This document shows positions 38,701 through 45,114 of a DNA stretch of 64,000 nucleotides, in pieces. The position numbers were made by a program, and so were the translations under genes. The DNA comes from an uncultured Prevotellaceae bacterium. GTDB taxonomy: Bacteria; Bacteroidota; Bacteroidia; Bacteroidales; UBA3663. Every line of letters starts with the position of its first letter. Positions within the stretch are counted from its first letter, which is position 1. The stretch covers positions 16,150-80,149 of the forward strand of contig CAZMOE010000005.1 of NCBI GenBank assembly GCA_964567855.1. Reading direction: 5' to 3'. The notes under the pieces were generated by a model. It had not been told where the DNA came from, searched no databases, and worked only from the letters and a program-made list of their open reading frames with translations.

Positions 38701-38968
38701 GCCCGAGGCGGCCGATTGGTTCGGGGAGGAAAATACGGTCCTGAATGAACAGACGATTCTCTGCGACAATGACGATGTAAAACGCCCGGACCGCATCGTG
38801 ATGCGCCCCGACGGGACGGTTATCGTGATCGATTATAAGACCGGACAGGAGCGGAGCGGTTATCGGGCACAGGTACGGACCTACATGAAATTGTTGTCGG
38901 CAATGGGATTCGGTTCCGTAAGAGGATATCTCTGGTATATAGATACCGGCAAGATCGAGGCCGTGTGA
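35720..38968 (+). CDS. UvrD/AddA-like helicase with a C-terminal PD-(D/E)XK nuclease domain
   Basis: 1082 aa. Walker A (ASAGSGKTH), helicase motifs (TFTNKATAEM, IDEFQDTS, VGDVKQSIYRWRGSD, TIHQAKGL, VAFTRPKE), and C-terminal nuclease motifs (CIHTALS; RPDRIV...VIDYKTG). Confidence 0.88.
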   Translation: MLYVYRASAGSGKTHLLTGFYLKLLFRKDLAVPEIGRPALFKEILAVTFTNKATAEMKSRIIEELELLSRRPSDSDYYPELNPGEAEPEEVIRKRAATIMNRLLNDYTDFNISTIDSFFQRIVRSFARELNLQGNYEIELDASRILEAAVNSFVNKLDRDTDKELFDWMLSFSRERISEGSSWDFKRELLAMAQVLVSEEYRRYSDRICAFTEDKKALKEYTGVVKRKIHDFRAALKKQGEEGLALLGRYGLAPDDFSRGSGSAVAILSVWAQGIVKEPTATLYKWAENADGWFAKTSKLHGKLPQEATDAILGMLQNAVALFGDDYRDFLSAQAILQNIYQLGILADIDREMREYCAEQGLMLLSGTTELLNRLVDADSSPFIYEKIGTRIRHFMIDEFQDTSGMQWENFKPLLSNALAEGSHNLIVGDVKQSIYRWRGSDWGLLHSGLDNYETALRRDDNTTLRTNWRSASEIIRFNNDFFRLASGKLEGAINAECESPGHDITRIYSDVAQQVPSRRRQQGEGLVHVEFVEGETVTQQREAAMERLPELIIELEKNGYEPRDIAILGRRKDICAQSVETLLRYKEEHPESPYCMDIISNEALLLSSRPVIQTLVGLLQHINNPESEIIRAMAAANYFQLSGCTMSEALQRYFENPEIHPRLREIASRPIYEMVEELIAILPSAAVAGISDNRSGDAVVNDDVPFLEAFRDLVLEFIHGRTPNLPAFLEWWEEYGIGKSIATPADQNAIRVMTIHQAKGLGMPAVIIPFASWPMDIKARASDLLWCEPKEGGFARDNLVLPIRLSKELPRTIFHREYEEERLRTMIDNLNTAYVAFTRPKEALIMLAPTPAKKAETTLERLIADYAGQDTGIFTNGLWARSGDSLRNKVASSSGVSSSDDHGRKGASRISGSGSDSVRGEFRLPRLSLKQSRLKKEDEKIRRGNCIHTALSAVTTVRDVDWRIDVLYNQGLLDETLIGRGEMKKMLYDLVRLPEAADWFGEENTVLNEQTILCDNDDVKRPDRIVMRPDGTVIVIDYKTGQERSGYRAQVRTYMKLLSAMGFGSVRGYLWYIDTGKIEAV

Positions 38969-39010
38969 GTCTCCAGGCCGTCCGGGCGTCTGCGCAGGAA
39001 ATCGGCCGGA

Positions 39011-39778
39011 TCAGTCGATTTTCTTGATCAGCAGTTCTTGCAGGCGGTTGGTCGAAAGGTTCCTGTAGAGTTTTGAACGATAGGCAAGTGTGATGCCCCC
39101 GGTCTCTTCGGAGACCACGACCACTTTTGCATCGGAAACCTCAGCTAGGCCGAGAGCCGAGCGATGGCGCAGGCCGCAAGCTTTGGGAATGTGGGGATCA
39201 TGTGAAACAGGCAGGATACATGATGCTGCCACGATGCGGTCTCCGGCCACGATCATGGCACCGTCGTGTAGCGGGCTGTTCTTGAAAAATATATTTTCTA
39301 TGAGGCGGGTTGACACGATGGCGTCGATATGGTCGCCGGTGGAGCTGAAACGGCTGAGGTCGTCGAGTTGTCGGATGACGATAAGGGCTCCCAGCTTCTG
39401 CTCGGACATGTTTTTACAGGCCAGCACTATGCGGTCTATCGTCTGGTGGGCATCTTCTTCTTTGATTTGTGCCTTATTGAAGAAGCGAAGGATGGAATGC
39501 CATTGGCGACGGGATCCGACCCGGATAAGCATCTGCCGGATTTCTTCCTGAAAGATGATGACGAGGGCTACGGCACCCACACTGAAAACCTGGTCCATGA
39601 TAGAGCCTAACAGGCGCATTCTGAATACTTGAGAAACTAAAATCCAGAATAATATCAGTGAAATAATGCCTGTGAAAATCGTGATGGTGCCGCTTTGTTT
39701 CATCATCTTGTAAAGATAGAAAAGCAAAATGGCCACTACCAGAATGTCGATAAAATCTTTAATGCCAAAGTCCCACAC
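39011..39778 (-). CDS. cdaA: diadenylate cyclase CdaA (c-di-AMP synthase)
   Basis: 255 aa. Three N-terminal TM helices followed by a DisA_N/DAC domain (GALIVI, SPLHDGAMIV, GLRHRSALGLAEVSDAKVVVVSEETG). Confidence 0.92.
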   Translation of the reverse strand: MWDFGIKDFIDILVVAILLFYLYKMMKQSGTITIFTGIISLILFWILVSQVFRMRLLGSIMDQVFSVGAVALVIIFQEEIRQMLIRVGSRRQWHSILRFFNKAQIKEEDAHQTIDRIVLACKNMSEQKLGALIVIRQLDDLSRFSSTGDHIDAIVSTRLIENIFFKNSPLHDGAMIVAGDRIVAASCILPVSHDPHIPKACGLRHRSALGLAEVSDAKVVVVSEETGGITLAYRSKLYRNLSTNRLQELLIKKID

Positions 39779-39862
39779 GGTTGTCGATATTTTTGATGGT
39801 TATTGTTATTTTCATTTTTACGAAAGTGAAAAAGGGGGCGAGGATATGATTTTCGCGTCGGT

Positions 39863-40693
39863 TTAAATGCTGTATTTTTTTACCGCTTTCCATATTTTTA
39901 CCGCTTCTACGGCCTCACGGACGTCGTGGACCCTCAAGATGTCAGCCCCCGATTGGAGAGCTAAGGTGTTGAGCACCGTCGTACCGTTGAGGGCTTGTCC
40001 TGCATCCGTGTCAAGCAGCCGGTAGATCATGCTTTTCCGCGAAATGCCTACCAAAAGTGGTAACCCGGCCATTTTTAGTGCCGGCAATCCGGCAAAAAGC
40101 CGGTAGTTTTGCTCCAATGTTTTCGCAAAACCGAAGCCAGGATCTAAAATGATCTGTCGGACTCCGGCCTGTCGTAGCCGGGCAACTTGTCCGATGAAGA
40201 ATGCCTGTATCTCGTTGATAAGATTCTCGTATCCGGTCATGTTTTGCATGGTGCGTGGTGTGCCGCGCATGTGCATTAATATATAGGGTACTTGCAGCGC
40301 GGCTGCGGTCTCGAACATCCGGCAGTCCAGTGTTCCGCCGCTGACGTCGTTGATGATCTCTGCCCCATATTCCCGGACACAACGCTCGGCGACTTCAGCC
40401 CGGAACGTGTCTATGGAAACCGGTATTCCCCGGGCCTCTTCCTTGATGATGGGCAGGGCCTGGGCCAGGCGTTCCATTTCTTCTTCGACCGAAATTTCTG
40501 TCGCGTCGGGGCGGGTGGAATAGGCCCCGACATCGATAATGTCTCCACCTTCGGCGGCGATCTGTCTGACCCGTGCGGCAATGGCTTTTTCATTGCGGCA
40601 ACGGCTATGGGCATAAAAGGAATCCGGCGTCACGTTGAGGATACCCATTACGATCGGCATTTTGCTGTCTGACAGCATGCTTTTTTTGTCCAT
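39863..40693 (-). CDS. folP: dihydropteroate synthase
   Basis: Pterin-binding motifs are present (IVMGILNVTPDSF, DIIDVGAYSTRP, INDVSGG, ILDPGFGFAK). The track ORF starts at a TTG (40723). I prefer the ATG at 40693 (MDKKSMLSDSKMPIVMG). Confidence 0.92.
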   Translation of the reverse strand: MDKKSMLSDSKMPIVMGILNVTPDSFYAHSRCRNEKAIAARVRQIAAEGGDIIDVGAYSTRPDATEISVEEEMERLAQALPIIKEEARGIPVSIDTFRAEVAERCVREYGAEIINDVSGGTLDCRMFETAAALQVPYILMHMRGTPRTMQNMTGYENLINEIQAFFIGQVARLRQAGVRQIILDPGFGFAKTLEQNYRLFAGLPALKMAGLPLLVGISRKSMIYRLLDTDAGQALNGTTVLNTLALQSGADILRVHDVREAVEAVKIWKAVKKYSI

Positions 40694-41650
40694 ATTGATC
40701 TGTTTATCGGCTTTGAATTGCAAAGAAACGGCAAAAATGAAATAAAAGCAAGCATTTTTATATGCTTTTTCCGCGTTTATGCTACATTATATGGAAAACT
40801 CTTTATCTTTACAGCGTAAAATATGCTATGTCTCATTTCCGGGAGCACGACGGGCAGGTTTACGTGCATAAACAATTTTTAAATGTATCAGGTTATGATC
40901 GAAACGTTCAAGGCAAAAGATACCATGTCGCAGGTTTATTGGATTGCCGTTCTTTTGACCAATATCGTTTTTGAGGTTCAGAAGATCTGGATCTGTCGAA
41001 GTTTTTGACGGGAATGTCGTGGCGGTCGAATTGATTTGATTGGCTTTTCGTTTTGTAACTCTCATTTGAATTACTTATTTCATTAACCCTTAAAAATAAA
41101 AATTATGGCTTTGAATTTTATTCTTCCTATTGGCTGGATCGTTGTTGCGATCGTGCTTTTTTCGGCATTGATTAAATGTTTCCGCTGTTGTCCTTCCGAC
41201 AAGATTTTGGTTATTTACGGAAAATCCGGTAGTAAAGGTTCTGTGAAATGTGTTTATGGCGGCTGTACATTTGTTTGGCCTATTATTCAGGATTATTCCT
41301 ATCTTAGTTTGACTCCGATCTCTATCGAGGCTAATCTGACCAATGTGCTCAATCGTCAGAACATCCGTGTCGATGTGTCATGTCTATTCATAGTCGGTAT
41401 CTCTACGGAAGCGGACTCTATGAACAACGCTGCAGAGCATTTGTTGGGACTTCCCGCTTCGGACATCCAGAAAATGGCGCGGGATATTCTTCTCGCTCAG
41501 CTTCGTCCCGTTATCGCCTCTATGAGTATCGAAGAATTGGACTCCGGTCGCGATAAATTCCAGGAGAATATCATGAAGAACGCAGAGATAGAGCTGAAAA
41601 AGATCGGTTTGAAGCTCATCAATATGAACGTTACCGATATCAAGGACAGA
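40478..41650. repeat. tandem segmental duplication, copy 1 (folP 5' end + intergenic + NfeD remnant + flotillin 5' part)
   Basis: Collinear with 41656-43250 by my own by-eye alignment. Divergence is roughly 10-15% in the parts I compared, with about 420 bp internally deleted inside the NfeD-like gene. Confidence 0.85.
40883..41039 (+). pseudogene. NfeD-like gene remnant (internal deletion and frameshift)
   Basis: Its 5' end (ATGTATCAGGTTATGATCGAAACGTTCAAGGCA...CAGGTTTATTGGATTGC) and 3' end (...GTCGAATTGATTTGA) match the intact copy at 42064-42639, but the middle ~420 bp are missing. The reading frame stops at 41006-41008. Confidence 0.75.
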
Positions 41651-41671
41651 TCTGGTATTCTTTCTCGGTAA
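41105..41671 (+). pseudogene. truncated flotillin/SPFH paralogue (N-terminal 180 aa, then junction-derived tail)
   Basis: 188 aa, about 85% identical to residues 1-181 of the 462-aa flotillin at 42706. It diverges at the duplication junction (...NVTDIKDRSGILSR*). Several CGN->TGN (Arg->Cys) changes separate it from the intact copy. It could still be expressed. Confidence 0.7.
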
Positions 41672-41873
41672 AGGGTTCTTTGGCGGCGGGGCAGGTGGAA
41701 CTGGTTCCGACATCGATGATGCCTCCTCCTTCGGCGGCGATCGGTCTGGCTCGTGCGACAATGGCTTTTTCATTGCGGCAATGGCTATGGGCGTAAAGGA
41801 CATCCGTAGTTGTATCGAGGAGGCCCATTACAAGTGGCGTCTTATCGTTTGATAACAGGCTTTTGGGGACTAT
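41656..41873 (-). pseudogene. folP 5' fragment created by the duplication
   Basis: The translation ...YAHSHCRNEKAIVARARPIAAEGGGIIDVGTSSTCPA parallels folP ...YAHSRCRNEKAIAARVRQIAAEGGDIIDVGAYSTRPDA. The position equivalent to the folP ATG (cat at 40691-40693) reads tat at 41871-41873. Confidence 0.8.
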
Positions 41874-42063
41874 ATTGATCTGTTTATCGTCTTTAAGACG
41901 CAGAGAAATGGCGAAAATGAAATAAAAACAAGCATTTTTTTATGCTTTTTGAACTTTTATGTTACAATGTGTGATAAAATTCTTTATCTTTACAGCGTAA
42001 AACAGGCCATGCTGCAATTCCCTGGAGCAGACAAGCCGGTTTTATTATAAAGAACTTTTTTAA

Positions 42064-42639
42064 ATGTATTTTGTTATGATCGAAGCATTCAAGGCAATGG
42101 ATACTATGTTGCAGGTCTATTGGATTGCGGCTCTCTTAGCGAGTGTAGTTTTTGTGGTCCAGGCCATAGGTACTTTTATCGGTTTTGACGCCGATACCGA
42201 TTTCGATGGCGGCGATATGGATTTTGATACCGATGGTTTTAATTTGGTTTCAGTCAAGACGATTGTTTGTTTCATTCTTGGTTTCGGATGGACCGGTGTT
42301 TTGTATTACGACTCGGTCGAAAGCCTTTGGCTTCTTAACCTGATGGCTTGCGGCGTCGGCCTGGTGTTTATGTTTATCATTGCGCTTTTGCTGCGTCAGA
42401 TGATGAAATTGACACAGGACAACTCATTCCGAATCATTACAACGGTTGGTAAGACCGCCGAAGTTTATCTGCGTATTCCGGCCGCTAAAGGCGATACCGG
42501 TAAGATCACTGTCAGCGTAGACGGATCTGTCCATGAACTGGAGGCTATTACCAATGGCGATGCCGACATTCCGACCGGAAGCAGGGTCCGTATTGTCGAG
42601 ACCGTGGATGAAAATACAGTAGTCGTCGAATTGATTTGA
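42064..42639 (+). CDS. NfeD-like membrane protein (TM helices plus C-terminal OB-fold)
   Basis: 191 aa. Hydrophobic N-terminal and central helices, then a C-terminal beta-rich segment (GKTAEVYLRIPAAKGDTGKITVSVDGSVHELEAITNGDADIPTGSRVRIVE). It lies immediately upstream of a flotillin gene, the classic NfeD-SPFH pairing. Confidence 0.7.
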   Translation: MYFVMIEAFKAMDTMLQVYWIAALLASVVFVVQAIGTFIGFDADTDFDGGDMDFDTDGFNLVSVKTIVCFILGFGWTGVLYYDSVESLWLLNLMACGVGLVFMFIIALLLRQMMKLTQDNSFRIITTVGKTAEVYLRIPAAKGDTGKITVSVDGSVHELEAITNGDADIPTGSRVRIVETVDENTVVVELI

Positions 42640-42705
42640 TTGGCTTTTCGTTTTGTAACTCTCATTTGAATTACTTATTTCATTAACCCTTAAAAAATAA
42701 AAATT

Positions 42706-44094
42706 ATGGATTTGAATTTCATTCTTCCTATTGGCGGGATTGTTGTTGCGATCGTGCTTTTTTCAGCATTGATTAAACGTTTCCGCCGTTGTCCTTCCGA
42801 CAAGATTTTGGTCATTTACGGAAAGGCAGGAAAAGGTTCTGCGAAGTGTATTCACGGTGGCGGTTCTTTTGTATGGCCTATTATTCAGGATTATTCCTAT
42901 CTTAGTTTGACTCCGATTTCCATCGAGGCCAATTTGACCAGTGCGCTCAGTCGCCAGAATATCCGTGTCGATGTGCCTTGCCGTTTCACGGTTGGTATTT
43001 CGACCGAAGCCGACTCCATGAATAATGCCGCCGAGCGTTTGCTGGGTCTTTCGGCTACGGATATCCAGGAAATGGCGCGGGATATTCTGTTCGGTCAGCT
43101 TCGTCTCGTTATCGCCTCTATGAGTATCGAGGAATTGAACTCAGATCGTGACAAATTCCAGGAGAATATCAAGAAAAACGTCGAGATCGAGTTGAAAAAA
43201 ATCGGCTTGAAGCTCATCAACGTGAATGTAACCGATATTAAGGATGAGTCCGGATATATCGAGGCGCTTGGTCGCGAGGCTGCCGCCAAGGCGATCAACG
43301 AAGCCAAGGTGAGCGTGGCAGAACAGGATAAAATTGGTGAGATCGGTAAGGCCGAAGCTTTGAAAGAGGCCCGTATCCGTACCTCGGAGGCTAATGCCAA
43401 GGCTATCCAGGGTGAAAATGCGGCTAAAGTGGAAATTGCCAATTCCGATTCTTTGCGCCGTGAAAAGGAGGCCGAGGCTCAACGTCGTGCCATCGCCGCG
43501 GAAAAGGTTCAGCAAGCCAAGGCATTGGAAGAGGCCTATGCGGCAGAAAAAGAAGCTGAGTTGGCCCGTGCCGAGCGTGAACGTTCAACACAACAGGCCA
43601 ACGTGATTGTGCCTCAGGAAATCGAGAAACGCAGAAAGATTATCGAAGCCGAAGCTGAAGCCGAGAAGAAACGTGTAAATGCAAAAGGTGAGGCCGATGC
43701 TATTTTCGCTAAGATGGAGGCAGAAGCAAAGGGTCTCTATGAAATTCTGACTAAGCAGGCTGACGGTTACGACCGGATGATCCAGGCCGCAGGCGGAGAT
43801 GCTACCAAGGCCTATACGCTGCTTTTGCTTGAGAAGTTGCCGGATCTTGTGAAGACTCAGGTTGAAGCCATTAAGGGCATTAACATCGATAAGGTTACTG
43901 TTTGGGACAGCGGTAGCAGTGCGGACGGCAAAGGTTCAACGGCTAATTTTTTAAGCGGTCTGATGAAGTCTGTTCCTCCGTTGAATGAGCTTTTCGAGCA
44001 GGCCGGCATGAACCTTCCGGAATATCTCGGTAAGAAAGAGGAAGTCGTAGAGGCCGAAGAGGTGCCTACAGCAACCGGTTATAGTAAGAAATAA
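42706..44094 (+). CDS. flotillin-family SPFH/Band-7 protein
   Basis: 462 aa. N-terminal TM helix, SPFH domain, then a long Ala/Glu/Lys-rich coiled-coil (EAEAQRRAIAAEKVQQAKALEEAYAAEKEAELARAERE...) and a flotillin C-terminal region. Confidence 0.9.
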   Translation: MDLNFILPIGGIVVAIVLFSALIKRFRRCPSDKILVIYGKAGKGSAKCIHGGGSFVWPIIQDYSYLSLTPISIEANLTSALSRQNIRVDVPCRFTVGISTEADSMNNAAERLLGLSATDIQEMARDILFGQLRLVIASMSIEELNSDRDKFQENIKKNVEIELKKIGLKLINVNVTDIKDESGYIEALGREAAAKAINEAKVSVAEQDKIGEIGKAEALKEARIRTSEANAKAIQGENAAKVEIANSDSLRREKEAEAQRRAIAAEKVQQAKALEEAYAAEKEAELARAERERSTQQANVIVPQEIEKRRKIIEAEAEAEKKRVNAKGEADAIFAKMEAEAKGLYEILTKQADGYDRMIQAAGGDATKAYTLLLLEKLPDLVKTQVEAIKGINIDKVTVWDSGSSADGKGSTANFLSGLMKSVPPLNELFEQAGMNLPEYLGKKEEVVEAEEVPTATGYSKK

Positions 44095-44145: not shown

Positions 44146-44364
44146 TATCTGACCGGTCGTTTTTTTATGGACGGATTCTAATTTCAGGAAATAGCTGCCA
44201 TTTCTGCCGGATTTTTATTCTCTGGGTCGGGTACGGATGCCGTTTCTTTTCTATAATGTGTTTGCAATAATGAAGAATGAGCATCTTTTTGGCCGGTATG
44301 ATGGGGCAGTTCGTGGAAAAAACTTATCTTTGCGCTCATATTGAACTCAATAAATGAAATTACT

Positions 44365-45114
44365 ATGGCAAAACGTGTATTGATTAAGACCAGCAAGGGA
44401 AACATTATCGTCCGTTTATATGACGAGACGCCTTTGCATCGCGATAATTTTTTGAAATTGGCGGCCGAAGGATATTATGACGGAACGTTATTTCATCGCG
44501 TGATTAAGGATTTTATGGTACAGGGGGGAGATCCTGACAGCAAGGGCGCTCCGGCCGGCAAACAGTTGGGAACTGGCGGCCCGGATTATACCGTTGCCGC
44601 TGAATTTGTCTATCCACAGCTTTTTCATAAAAAGGGAGCGTTGGCCGCTGCACGTCAGGGGGATGAAATGAATCCGGAAAAGCGTTCCAGTGGATCGCAG
44701 TTCTATATCGTCACCGGTCAGGTTTATAAAGAGGGGCAATTGGTCCAAATGGAGAAACAGATGGAGATGCAGCAGTTGCAATCTGTTTTCAACGGTCTCG
44801 TGGCAGAGCATCGTGATGAGATTCTGACTTTGCGCAAGAATCGCGATCAGGCAGGATTACAGGCTTTGCAGGAAAAATTGGAGAAAGAAACCTATGCTCG
44901 TGGCGAGAAGATGGGCACACCCAAGATGACGCCAGAACAGCGTGAGGCTTATACGACTATCGGTGGAGCTCCGTTCCTTGATAATCAGTATACTGTTTTC
45001 GGCGAGGTTGAAGAGGGACTTGAGGTGGTCGATGCCATTCAGCAGGTTGCAACTGCGCCGGGTGATCGTCCCAAAGAGGATGTTTCCATGTCTATGGAGG
45101 TATTGCCTGACTGA
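44365..45114 (+). CDS. cyclophilin-type peptidyl-prolyl cis-trans isomerase (with a helical insertion)
   Basis: I prefer the ATG at 44365 (MAKRVLIKTSKGNIIVRLYDETPLHRDNFLKLAAEGYYDGTLFHRVIKDFMVQGGDP), with SQFYIV and YTVFGEV motifs. An insert of about 80 aa lies between them. Confidence 0.9.
   Translation: MAKRVLIKTSKGNIIVRLYDETPLHRDNFLKLAAEGYYDGTLFHRVIKDFMVQGGDPDSKGAPAGKQLGTGGPDYTVAAEFVYPQLFHKKGALAAARQGDEMNPEKRSSGSQFYIVTGQVYKEGQLVQMEKQMEMQQLQSVFNGLVAEHRDEILTLRKNRDQAGLQALQEKLEKETYARGEKMGTPKMTPEQREAYTTIGGAPFLDNQYTVFGEVEEGLEVVDAIQQVATAPGDRPKEDVSMSMEVLPD

Follow-up and report, generated by a model that had tools for sequence, protein, structure and literature searches.

Organization of the folP–nfeD–flotillin locus

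The 64 000-nt window analysed here (contig CAZMOE010000005.1 of assembly GCA_964567855.1, from an uncultured Prevotellaceae bacterium) carries intact genes for a dihydropteroate synthase (folP), an NfeD-like protein and a flotillin-family protein, together with a second, incomplete set of pieces of the same three genes. The source assembly, 2.75 Mb in 70 contigs, resembles a metagenome-assembled genome (MAG); all coordinates are those of the window. Repeat searching, MAFFT alignment and blastn showed that copy 1 (40478–41658, 1181 nt) and copy 2 (41659–43257, 1599 nt) are direct head-to-tail collinear repeats with one novel junction. Collinearity and the alignment of the junction place the 5′ part of folP, an intergenic region, an NfeD remnant, a spacer and a truncated flotillin in copy 1, and a folP 5′ fragment, an intergenic region, an intact NfeD-like gene, a spacer and the 5′ part of the intact flotillin gene in copy 2. 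In a blastn comparison of the two halves, 40496–40981 (folP and intergenic part) aligned with 41676–42162 at 77.8 % identity (E 1e-107) and 41025–41646 (flotillin 5′ part) with 42625–43244 at 86.7 % identity (E 0). Between the aligned blocks there were 43 nt in copy 1 vs 462 nt in copy 2, a net loss of ~419 bp from the copy 1 NfeD gene.

An initial annotation of the locus had reported two collinear segments, a start at 40478, a loss of about 420 bp within the first NfeD-like gene and about 85 % amino acid identity between the flotillin N-termini. The collinearity held in all three comparisons, the start coordinate proved exact once the junction had been placed at 41658/41659, and the deletion and the amino acid identity (measured at 82.8 %) were close to the values given. 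The intact folP, the NfeD-like gene at 42064–42639 and the 462-aa flotillin were likewise found as described there, by profile matches and, for NfeD, by a fold match.

One intact copy of each gene has been retained, folP from copy 1 and nfeD and flotillin from copy 2, and a search of the genome turned up no additional copies of these genes beyond the two. Intact folP (39863–40693, minus strand, 276 aa) matched Pfam Pterin_bind (E 1e-74) and passed the equivalog cut-off of NCBIfam TIGR01496 (311.7 vs 162.6 bits); its 5′ 216 nt (40478–40693) lie inside copy 1. The intact flotillin (42706–44094, plus strand, 462 aa) is of the SPFH2 type, with a Pfam Band_7 domain (PF01145, E 3e-29 over residues 31–209) after a hydrophobic N-terminal anchor visible in the sequence. 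It scored 150.4 bits against the NCBIfam FloT equivalog NF058507, below the cut-off of 700; the product is a flotillin-family protein, not a FloT equivalog. Identity to orthologues across the genus was 82–92 % and the ratio of non-synonymous to synonymous rates (ω) was 0.008–0.016; this gene is under strong purifying selection.

The spare pieces are three. In copy 1, the divergent folP/nfeD intergenic region (40694–40882; 54–90 % identity to copy 2 in 50-nt windows) is followed on the plus strand by the NfeD remnant (40883–41065), the nfeD–flotillin spacer (41025–41107) and a truncated flotillin open reading frame (ORF) of 188 aa (41105–41671), for which a partial Band_7 match (Pfam E 4e-17) and the alignment to the intact flotillin indicated an N-terminal anchor and an SPFH domain. 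Copy 2 opens with the folP 5′ fragment on the minus strand (41659–41873, ~70 codons; Pterin_bind profile positions 1–54 matched by the minus-strand ORF 41640–41828), followed by the second intergenic region (41874–42063). The upstream neighbour in the gene map is cdaA (39011–39778, minus strand).

The junction and its presence in other assemblies

Three-way comparison of the junction with intact flotillin and folP placed the breakpoint at 41658/41659, where flotillin codon ~184 is fused to folP codon ~70 in antisense with a microhomology of at most 2–3 nt. The last four codons and the stop of the 188-aa ORF come from folP antisense sequence, which agrees with the tail DRSGILSR that had been annotated as ending at the junction.

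Independent support was sought in other public assemblies encoding the exact 188-aa protein or a two-substitution variant, and the ORF was present in four other contigs: L013 (GCA_009295445.1; window span 38850–41909, 99.6 % identity), L014 (GCA_009295485.1; 40912–41807, 98.8 %), L027 (a 14-kb contig of GCA_009295485.1; 38106–47670, 99.15 %) and L108 (the 21.7-kb contig WFLX010045794.1; 37605–45167, 98.7 %). All four of these contigs, from three assemblies, crossed the junction, and L027 and L108 contained both copies. Strain-level differences among the four show that they were assembled independently, and the duplication is therefore not an assembly artefact, a possibility that the initial annotation had itself raised. 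A search for a strain without the duplication, with the intact flotillin protein as an exact query, yielded only a contig in which the duplication is present. The duplication is real and fixed in every strain seen.

Some minor features of the breakpoints were also recorded. The 8-mer AGATCTGG occurs at both copy 1 scars, at 40983–40990 (the NfeD deletion) and at 41648–41655 (just before the junction); other strains carry CCATCTGG at 40983–40990 in its place. The final ~12 nt of flotillin homology ahead of the junction are unusually diverged. The shared 8-mer and the diverged nucleotides could reflect chance or a templated patch. L108 has Ns at polymorphic sites, 12 of which cluster in the 5′ part of intact flotillin (equivalent to window 42739–42873). 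Exchange between the copies was rejected as their source, as the N positions are not where the copies differ; the clusters indicate a third strain haplotype in that sample.

The NfeD-like gene and its remnant

The product of the intact NfeD-like gene (42064–42639, plus strand, 191 aa) scored below the gathering cut-off for Pfam NfeD (PF01957; 15.6 vs 29.1 bits, E 0.019), with the sub-threshold match at the correct C-terminal place (residues 128–189), and querying PDB sequences with a profile of the NfeD alignment gave no match. An AlphaFold2 model built with 13 orthologues (predicted local distance difference test score 76.5) had three N-terminal helices (residues 14–39, 53–81 and 88–120) and a C-terminal β domain of five strands between 131 and 190. 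The top four Foldseek matches were all NfeD domains (YuaF 2K14, YbbJ in 8Z5G, PH1510-C 3WWV and MTH693 2K5H; E 9e-5 to 9e-4), and the gene lies directly upstream of flotillin throughout the genus. In its predicted fold and in this position, the product corresponds to the NfeD proteins as defined by structure and operon context by Hinderhofer et al. (2009; PMC2636767).

The remnant in copy 1, identified by alignment, from the ORF list and by tblastn (residues 1–35 of the intact copy, nfeD2, at 71 %), keeps the first 33 codons. The scar of the ~419-bp deletion lies at ~40982–41024; the frame is shifted and a 41-aa ORF (40883–41008) is left. The spare NfeD gene is thus decaying debris that has lost its reading frame. 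The annotations of L013 and L027 include a gene call for a 79-aa ORF antisense to the remnant (40826–41065, minus strand). A 66-aa paralogue of this ORF at 42465–42665 begins with the same residues, read from the conserved spacer, and the 79-aa call is probably spurious.

Origin and age of the duplication

The relatives available for comparison were rumen and herbivore-gut Bacteroidales MAGs. In a search of 39 genomes of the genus, 37 of the 38 others gave a match; all were single-copy and the folP–nfeD–flotillin order was conserved. The best identity of any genus genome to copy 1 was at most 76 %, compared with 78–87 % between copy 2 and copy 1. A tree built from the 5′ part of flotillin placed the copies as sisters (support 1.000), and the distance at four-fold degenerate sites was 0.50 between the copies vs 0.80–2.0 to other species. 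Given the single-copy relatives, the sister position of the copies and their smaller four-fold-site distance, the duplication arose in this species' own lineage, after its split from all sampled relatives; among the sampled genomes the copies are each other's closest relatives. Such a comparison with related genomes had been proposed in the initial annotation as a means of dating the event. The age of the duplication was estimated as ~0.24 neutral substitutions per site per copy, about 20 times the synonymous divergence between strains (~0.023) and below the four-fold-site divergence (≥0.8) to any sampled species of the genus.

One candidate for a second truncated flotillin, a flotillin-like ORF of 185 aa (P0003, on a contig of 101 kb), was rejected; it belongs to a flotillin split by a frameshift, its context is unrelated and there is no folP in the vicinity. 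In an unrelated organism (L025, 5001–6381, ena:ERZ27318690 k141_354933, and L026), a flotillin beside an NfeD-like gene is frameshift-split into overlapping ORFs of 185 and 288 aa. The split was seen in two independent assemblies, and the neighbouring genes encode a ketoacyl-synthase, an acyl carrier protein (PP-binding) and a methyltransferase.

The folP fragment as an internal neutral clock

The start codon of the folP fragment is ATA (TAT on the plus strand at 41871–41873), as first annotated for a minus-strand folP 5′ fragment whose bounds are now set at 41659–41873. Having lost its start codon and all but ~70 of 276 codons, the fragment is certainly non-functional. Differences between folP and the fragment were spread evenly over the three codon positions (15/14/17 in 66 codons), and among the 24 replacements 16 were polarised to the fragment and one to folP. 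The pooled four-fold sites of the folP and flotillin pairs gave a divergence of 0.487, equal to 0.243 substitutions per site per lineage, and the first and second codon positions of the fragment had evolved at 1.07 times this four-fold-site rate. In the folP pair 19 of 104 first and second codon positions and six of 19 four-fold sites differed, compared with 0–2 of 104 first and second positions in functional orthologue pairs of the same four-fold divergence. Practically all of the divergence of the folP pair is therefore later than the loss of function, which means that the copies were identical at birth. The fragment is a pseudogene whose decay has been neutral from that time on, and its replacements, like those of the truncated flotillin, were random in kind.

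Amount and kind of change in the truncated flotillin

The truncated flotillin is open over 188 codons, keeps its ATG and has a single indel, which is in frame. Changes were polarised with 15 outgroups. By codon position there were 19/16/26 changes in the copy 1 flotillin and 4/1/23 in copy 2; copy 1 had acquired 26–29 replacements, four of the 29 in the junction-derived tail, and copy 2 three. The copy 1 replacements fell nearly all at genus-invariant positions, examples at residues invariant in 15 species being R25C, R28C, G>C, P>S, R>L and L>P. A background value of ω was rejected for copy 1 (p=6e-15), so that constraint has clearly been relaxed. The change from KRFRRC to KCFRCC noted in the initial annotation is derived in copy 1, since copy 2 and every one of the 15 outgroups have KR[YF]RRC. 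The CGN to TGN changes reported there are also real and belong to a general GC>AT bias, 24 of the 52 polarised changes being transitions of this type. They showed no significant CpG excess, GC>AT transitions having occurred at 11 of 92 CpG sites vs 14 of 168 other G/C sites (p=0.38).

The total amount of amino acid change was nevertheless smaller than in the folP fragment. In the flotillin pair 34 of 366 first and second codon positions (9.3 %) and 22 of 60 four-fold sites differed. The relative rate of the truncated flotillin was 0.41 times neutral, well below the neutral expectation (p=2.6e-9) and below the folP pair in a model-free comparison (p=3.7e-4). A codon model in which the neutral branch lengths of the two copies were held equal (a same-genome clock) gave an ω of 0.27 and rejected ω=1 (p=1e-7). 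This home-made model replaced an unconstrained branch model in which branch length and ω traded off, giving a degenerate fit (ω 0.13, with an absurd branch length). These two values, the ω of 0.27 and the relative rate of 0.41, supply the dN/dS comparison of the two flotillin 5′ parts that had been suggested at the outset. Wholesale gene conversion was rejected as a cause of the low non-synonymous change. It would also have erased synonymous differences and so cannot mimic the pattern; the predicted four-fold divergence was 0.18 vs an observed 0.37 (22 of 60, p=3e-4).

The changes that did occur showed no sign of constraint. Replacements in copy 1 were found at 21 of 136 invariant vs five of 44 variable positions (p=0.63), and their mean BLOSUM62 score was −0.58 vs −0.53 for random mutations (p=0.58). 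Changes that are too few and yet random in kind point to a mixture over time, with strong constraint first and complete release later. The fitted mixture had a neutral phase of ~0.089 substitutions per site, which is 37 % of the total age and corresponds to ~49 neutral substitutions. With this load the probability of an ORF without stops was ~0.15–0.24, so that survival of the frame by chance would be unremarkable under delayed death; at the full neutral load of ~133 substitutions the probability of having no stop and keeping the ATG was ~0.01. Past selection on the truncated ORF would imply that it was expressed.

Homogenized patch, spacer and intergenic elements

A patch around the flotillin start (41020–41225, plus strand, paralogous to ~42620–42826) stood out in the identity profile, with 92–100 % identity between the copies. 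Four-fold differences numbered two of 15 inside the patch vs 20 of 45 outside, and the probability of a run of at least 82 identical bases between the copies was ~2.5e-4. This ~200-nt patch would represent a later gene-conversion tract, with an estimated date of ~0.073. Within it, copy 1 has evolved since the conversion at 0.87 times the neutral rate at first and second positions, a figure based on only five changes.

The two spacers (41025–41107 and 42625–42708) differ by one A-run indel only, an extra A in copy 2, compared with 11 differences in the 120 nt of the coding part of the patch (P ~0.003). A spacer free of substitutions would be explained either by a further short conversion of very recent date or by selection acting on its expression signals. 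The spacer was also considered as a conserved RNA or leader, and this was rejected; it was not conserved in relatives, had no Rfam match and had no significant fold (z = +0.41).

Two short elements are shared by the intergenic copies. The palindrome AAGCAT-N6-ATGCTT occurs in both (40750–40767 and 41930–41947) with one substitution in its spacer, and a 21-nt box, CTTTATCTTTACAGCGTAAAA, is identical in both (40801–40821 and 41982–42002) and includes TAtcTTTa, a near-match to the Bacteroidota −7 motif. The DNA around these elements is just 54–80 % identical between the copies. Both are candidate promoter or operator elements. The initial annotation suggested that the duplicated promoter region may still drive the truncated ORF and an antisense folP fragment. 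The exact −7 motif TAnnTTTG was not found in the intergenic regions, and a scan for σ70 promoters, a model that is not applicable to Bacteroidota, showed no enrichment.

Variation between strains

The window strain was compared with L027 across the duplicated genes. The truncated ORF had two non-synonymous and two synonymous differences, and the intact flotillin none and nine, respectively. One of the radical replacements in the truncated ORF, R25C, is a derived polymorphism of the window strain, with L027 and L108 keeping the ancestral arginine. Five substitutions within 57 nt at the NfeD scar (40974–41030) separate the window strain from L013, L014, L027 and L108; this cluster is far denser than elsewhere and looks like one multi-base event in one lineage. 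Gene conversion was rejected as a source of the clusters of strain differences, as variant bases match the paralogue only sometimes and form no clean tract. Several of the clusters, at contig ends, may be assembly noise. Outside the duplication, L027 has a 1-nt indel at 44316, in the intergenic region upstream of a cyclophilin gene (44341–45114); 281 aa are called for this gene in L027 vs a 257-aa ORF with a TTG start in the window, and its start codon is uncertain.

Discussion

The locus is a real, old tandem duplication in which the folP fragment was dead at birth, and we consider it reasonably probable that the truncated flotillin was long protected before entering its present decay. The initial annotation had called it an ancient duplication now decaying. 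Its structure, age, origin within the lineage and decay are upheld by the present comparisons; the decay is not uniform, however, the truncated flotillin having changed at only about 0.4 times the neutral rate at non-synonymous sites. In the lineage of this species, a Bacteroidales of rumen or herbivore-gut type represented by metagenome assemblies, a single illegitimate recombination, with microhomology of 2–3 nt or less, would have joined flotillin codon ~184 to folP codon ~70, giving a head-to-tail duplication of a ~1.6-kb interval that comprised the folP 5′ end, the divergent promoter region, the NfeD gene and the flotillin 5′ end. Three spare pieces were left over, namely the folP fragment, the NfeD copy and the truncated flotillin. 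Of these, the folP fragment has decayed at the full neutral rate from birth and the spare NfeD gene has lost ~419 bp and its reading frame. The ~200-nt patch around the flotillin start was re-homogenized later. The truncated flotillin (anchor plus SPFH domain, 188 aa) would have been under purifying selection for approximately the first 60–65 % of the time and then released, so that today it would be an open but decaying ORF.

Two routes to this state can be envisaged. The 1.6-kb duplication may have arisen in one step, in which case the truncated anchor-plus-SPFH protein would itself have been useful for a while. Alternatively, a larger duplication of cdaA–folP–nfeD–flotillin may have provided a full-length second flotillin, which would have persisted as the surplus folP decayed. 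The present junction would then stem from a subsequent deletion that began midway through flotillin 1 and ended midway through folP 2, and this deletion would have killed the flotillin copy. Both routes fit, and nothing in the sequence appears to discriminate between them. Tandem duplications are lost by RecA-dependent homologous recombination, and the divergence of the copies together with the internal deletion may now protect the structure from such loss.

Several observations weigh against the account of a truncated flotillin that was protected and then released. The unconstrained branch model was unidentifiable and did not reject ω=1 (2ΔlnL=3.0), and the ω estimates rest on 183 codons, 60 four-fold sites and near-saturated outgroups. 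No substitutions are seen in the 82-nt spacer that precedes the truncated ORF, where ~6 would be expected since the conversion of the patch (P=0.002–0.003). The strain divergence of the truncated ORF (four differences in 567 nt, 0.71 %) equals that of the intact genes and is four-fold below that of the adjacent dead pieces, namely the folP fragment, the NfeD remnant and the second intergenic region (17 in 575 nt, 2.96 %; p=0.002–0.007), which hints that constraint is still acting. Strain differences are patchy, with none in the 576 nt of nfeD2 and none in the 189 nt of one intergenic region, and pooling all non-coding sequence would weaken the contrast (to p ~0.03 by rough estimate).

Some of these points would be accommodated if the truncated flotillin were still a working gene, a membrane-anchored SPFH-only protein under relaxed purifying selection that might co-assemble with or modulate the full-length flotillin. 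As a living flotillin without its coiled coil, the 188-aa product could serve to cap, space or regulate the assemblies formed by the full-length protein, which is encoded 1 kb downstream, and the upstream spacer would then have been kept by selection on expression signals and not by conversion. We regard this as unlikely, and it is the low strain divergence of the ORF and the substitution-free spacer that keep us from rating it lower. An ω of 0.27–0.41, below 1 on the long timescale, speaks for it, as do the intact ORF, ATG and upstream spacer and the low probability that the frame would survive a full neutral load; the product is also biochemically plausible, since the isolated SPFH/PHB domain of Bacillus subtilis FloT folds and oligomerizes (PMC4312047). 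Against it, the replacements fall on invariant positions as readily as on variable ones, and random mutations would be just as conservative, with the changes at residues invariant in 15 species among the replacements; the rate within the recent conversion patch is close to neutral, the strain polymorphism of the ORF is two non-synonymous to two synonymous vs none to nine in the intact gene, and the copy of the NfeD partner has been destroyed. The opposite reading, in which all three spare pieces including the truncated flotillin were dead from the duplication on and underwent plain neutral decay, we find still harder to accept. The near-uniform spread of copy 1 changes over codon positions (chi-square estimate p ~0.14), the failure to reject ω=1 when the clock constraint is removed and the random kind of the replacements would all suit it. 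It is contradicted by the folP fragment, which is of the same age and differs at 22 % of first and second positions in the model-free comparison with the 9.3 % of the flotillin pair; the four-fold sites of the two pairs are equally diverged (0.33 and 0.37). The truncated flotillin also falls short of the neutral expectation, the clock model rejects ω=1, and an open frame at the full neutral load would be a matter of about one chance in a hundred.

The divergence of the copies would lose its meaning as an age if a fragment from a diverged sister lineage had been circularized and integrated by a single crossover (Campbell-type), since it would then reflect the distance between donor and recipient. 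Such an integration yields exactly the head-to-tail architecture and would account for the synonymous excess in the flotillin pair with no need for the truncated copy to have been selected. It is very improbable all the same, because it predicts a mostly synonymous divergence of the folP pair, contrary to the many first and second position differences observed there, and because no sampled genome exceeds 76 % identity to either copy and the two copies form a clade with full support. That two strains or species were merged into one contig during assembly or binning is scarcely credible. The MAG-like nature of the 70-contig source genome would allow for it, but the same junction recurs in the four contigs of three other assemblies, the whole structure in two of them, with strain-level differences that show independent assembly, and the copies have diverged by 13–22 %, far too much for repeat collapse.

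Bacterial tandem duplications are usually seen when they are young, nearly identical and unstable. The present locus resembles known tandem duplications by illegitimate recombination in its head-to-tail copies, its single junction with microhomology of 2–3 nt or less, the one intact copy of each gene and the decaying fragments. It differs from the usual young ones in being fixed and old (~0.24 neutral substitutions per site per copy), in apparently having been stabilized by divergence and an internal deletion, and in having pieces that share one birth date and so serve as an internal neutral clock.

The arrangement of the intact genes is that of the NfeD–SPFH2 operons, such as yuaF–floT (yuaG) of B. 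subtilis and yqiJ–yqiK of Escherichia coli, whose NfeD proteins have three hydrophobic N-terminal helices and a C-terminal β (OB-like) domain (Hinderhofer et al., 2009; PMC2636767). As in those operons, a gene for a small membrane protein lies directly upstream of a flotillin-type SPFH gene, and the predicted fold matches YuaF, YbbJ and PH1510-C; unlike them, the Pfam NfeD match is sub-threshold, the FloT cut-off is missed and the 5′ two-thirds of the operon has been duplicated along with the start of folP. Tandem SPFH2 paralogues within one operon are known from cyanobacteria (Syc1607_d/Syc1608_d) and Shewanella (SO4128–4130) (PMC2636767). Here too an SPFH gene has been duplicated beside its NfeD partner, and under the two-step route the lineage would for a while have had two full-length flotillins. 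Those paralogues are full length and retained, whereas the present copy breaks off directly behind its SPFH domain, has radical replacements and seems to be in decay. In extent, the 188-aa ORF matches the anchor and SPFH domain of FloT studied in B. subtilis, where the isolated PHB/SPFH domain folds and oligomerizes alone and an N-terminal hairpin anchors the protein in the membrane (Bach & Bramkamp, 2015; PMC4312047). That domain was an engineered construct of a Firmicute protein, whereas the truncation described here is natural and has changes at invariant residues.

The history outlined above is one of ordinary genome evolution, if exceptionally well preserved; duplications and pseudogene debris are well known and no new mechanism is suggested. 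New here is the uneven fate of the three spare pieces: the truncated flotillin was probably not dead on arrival, having probably been selected for long and probably decaying now. In public assemblies the 188-aa ORF is called a Band_7 protein, and it merits a flag as a truncated paralogue and probable pseudogene. The value of the locus lies in its being a clean natural experiment, in which three gene pieces that share their moment of birth, their genome and their locus have met different fates that can be read against an internal clock. If the truncated SPFH-only protein should be expressed and functional, it would amount to a natural dissection of a bacterial flotillin, leaving the anchor and SPFH domain but no coiled coil, and would be useful for studies of the assembly of SPFH cages.

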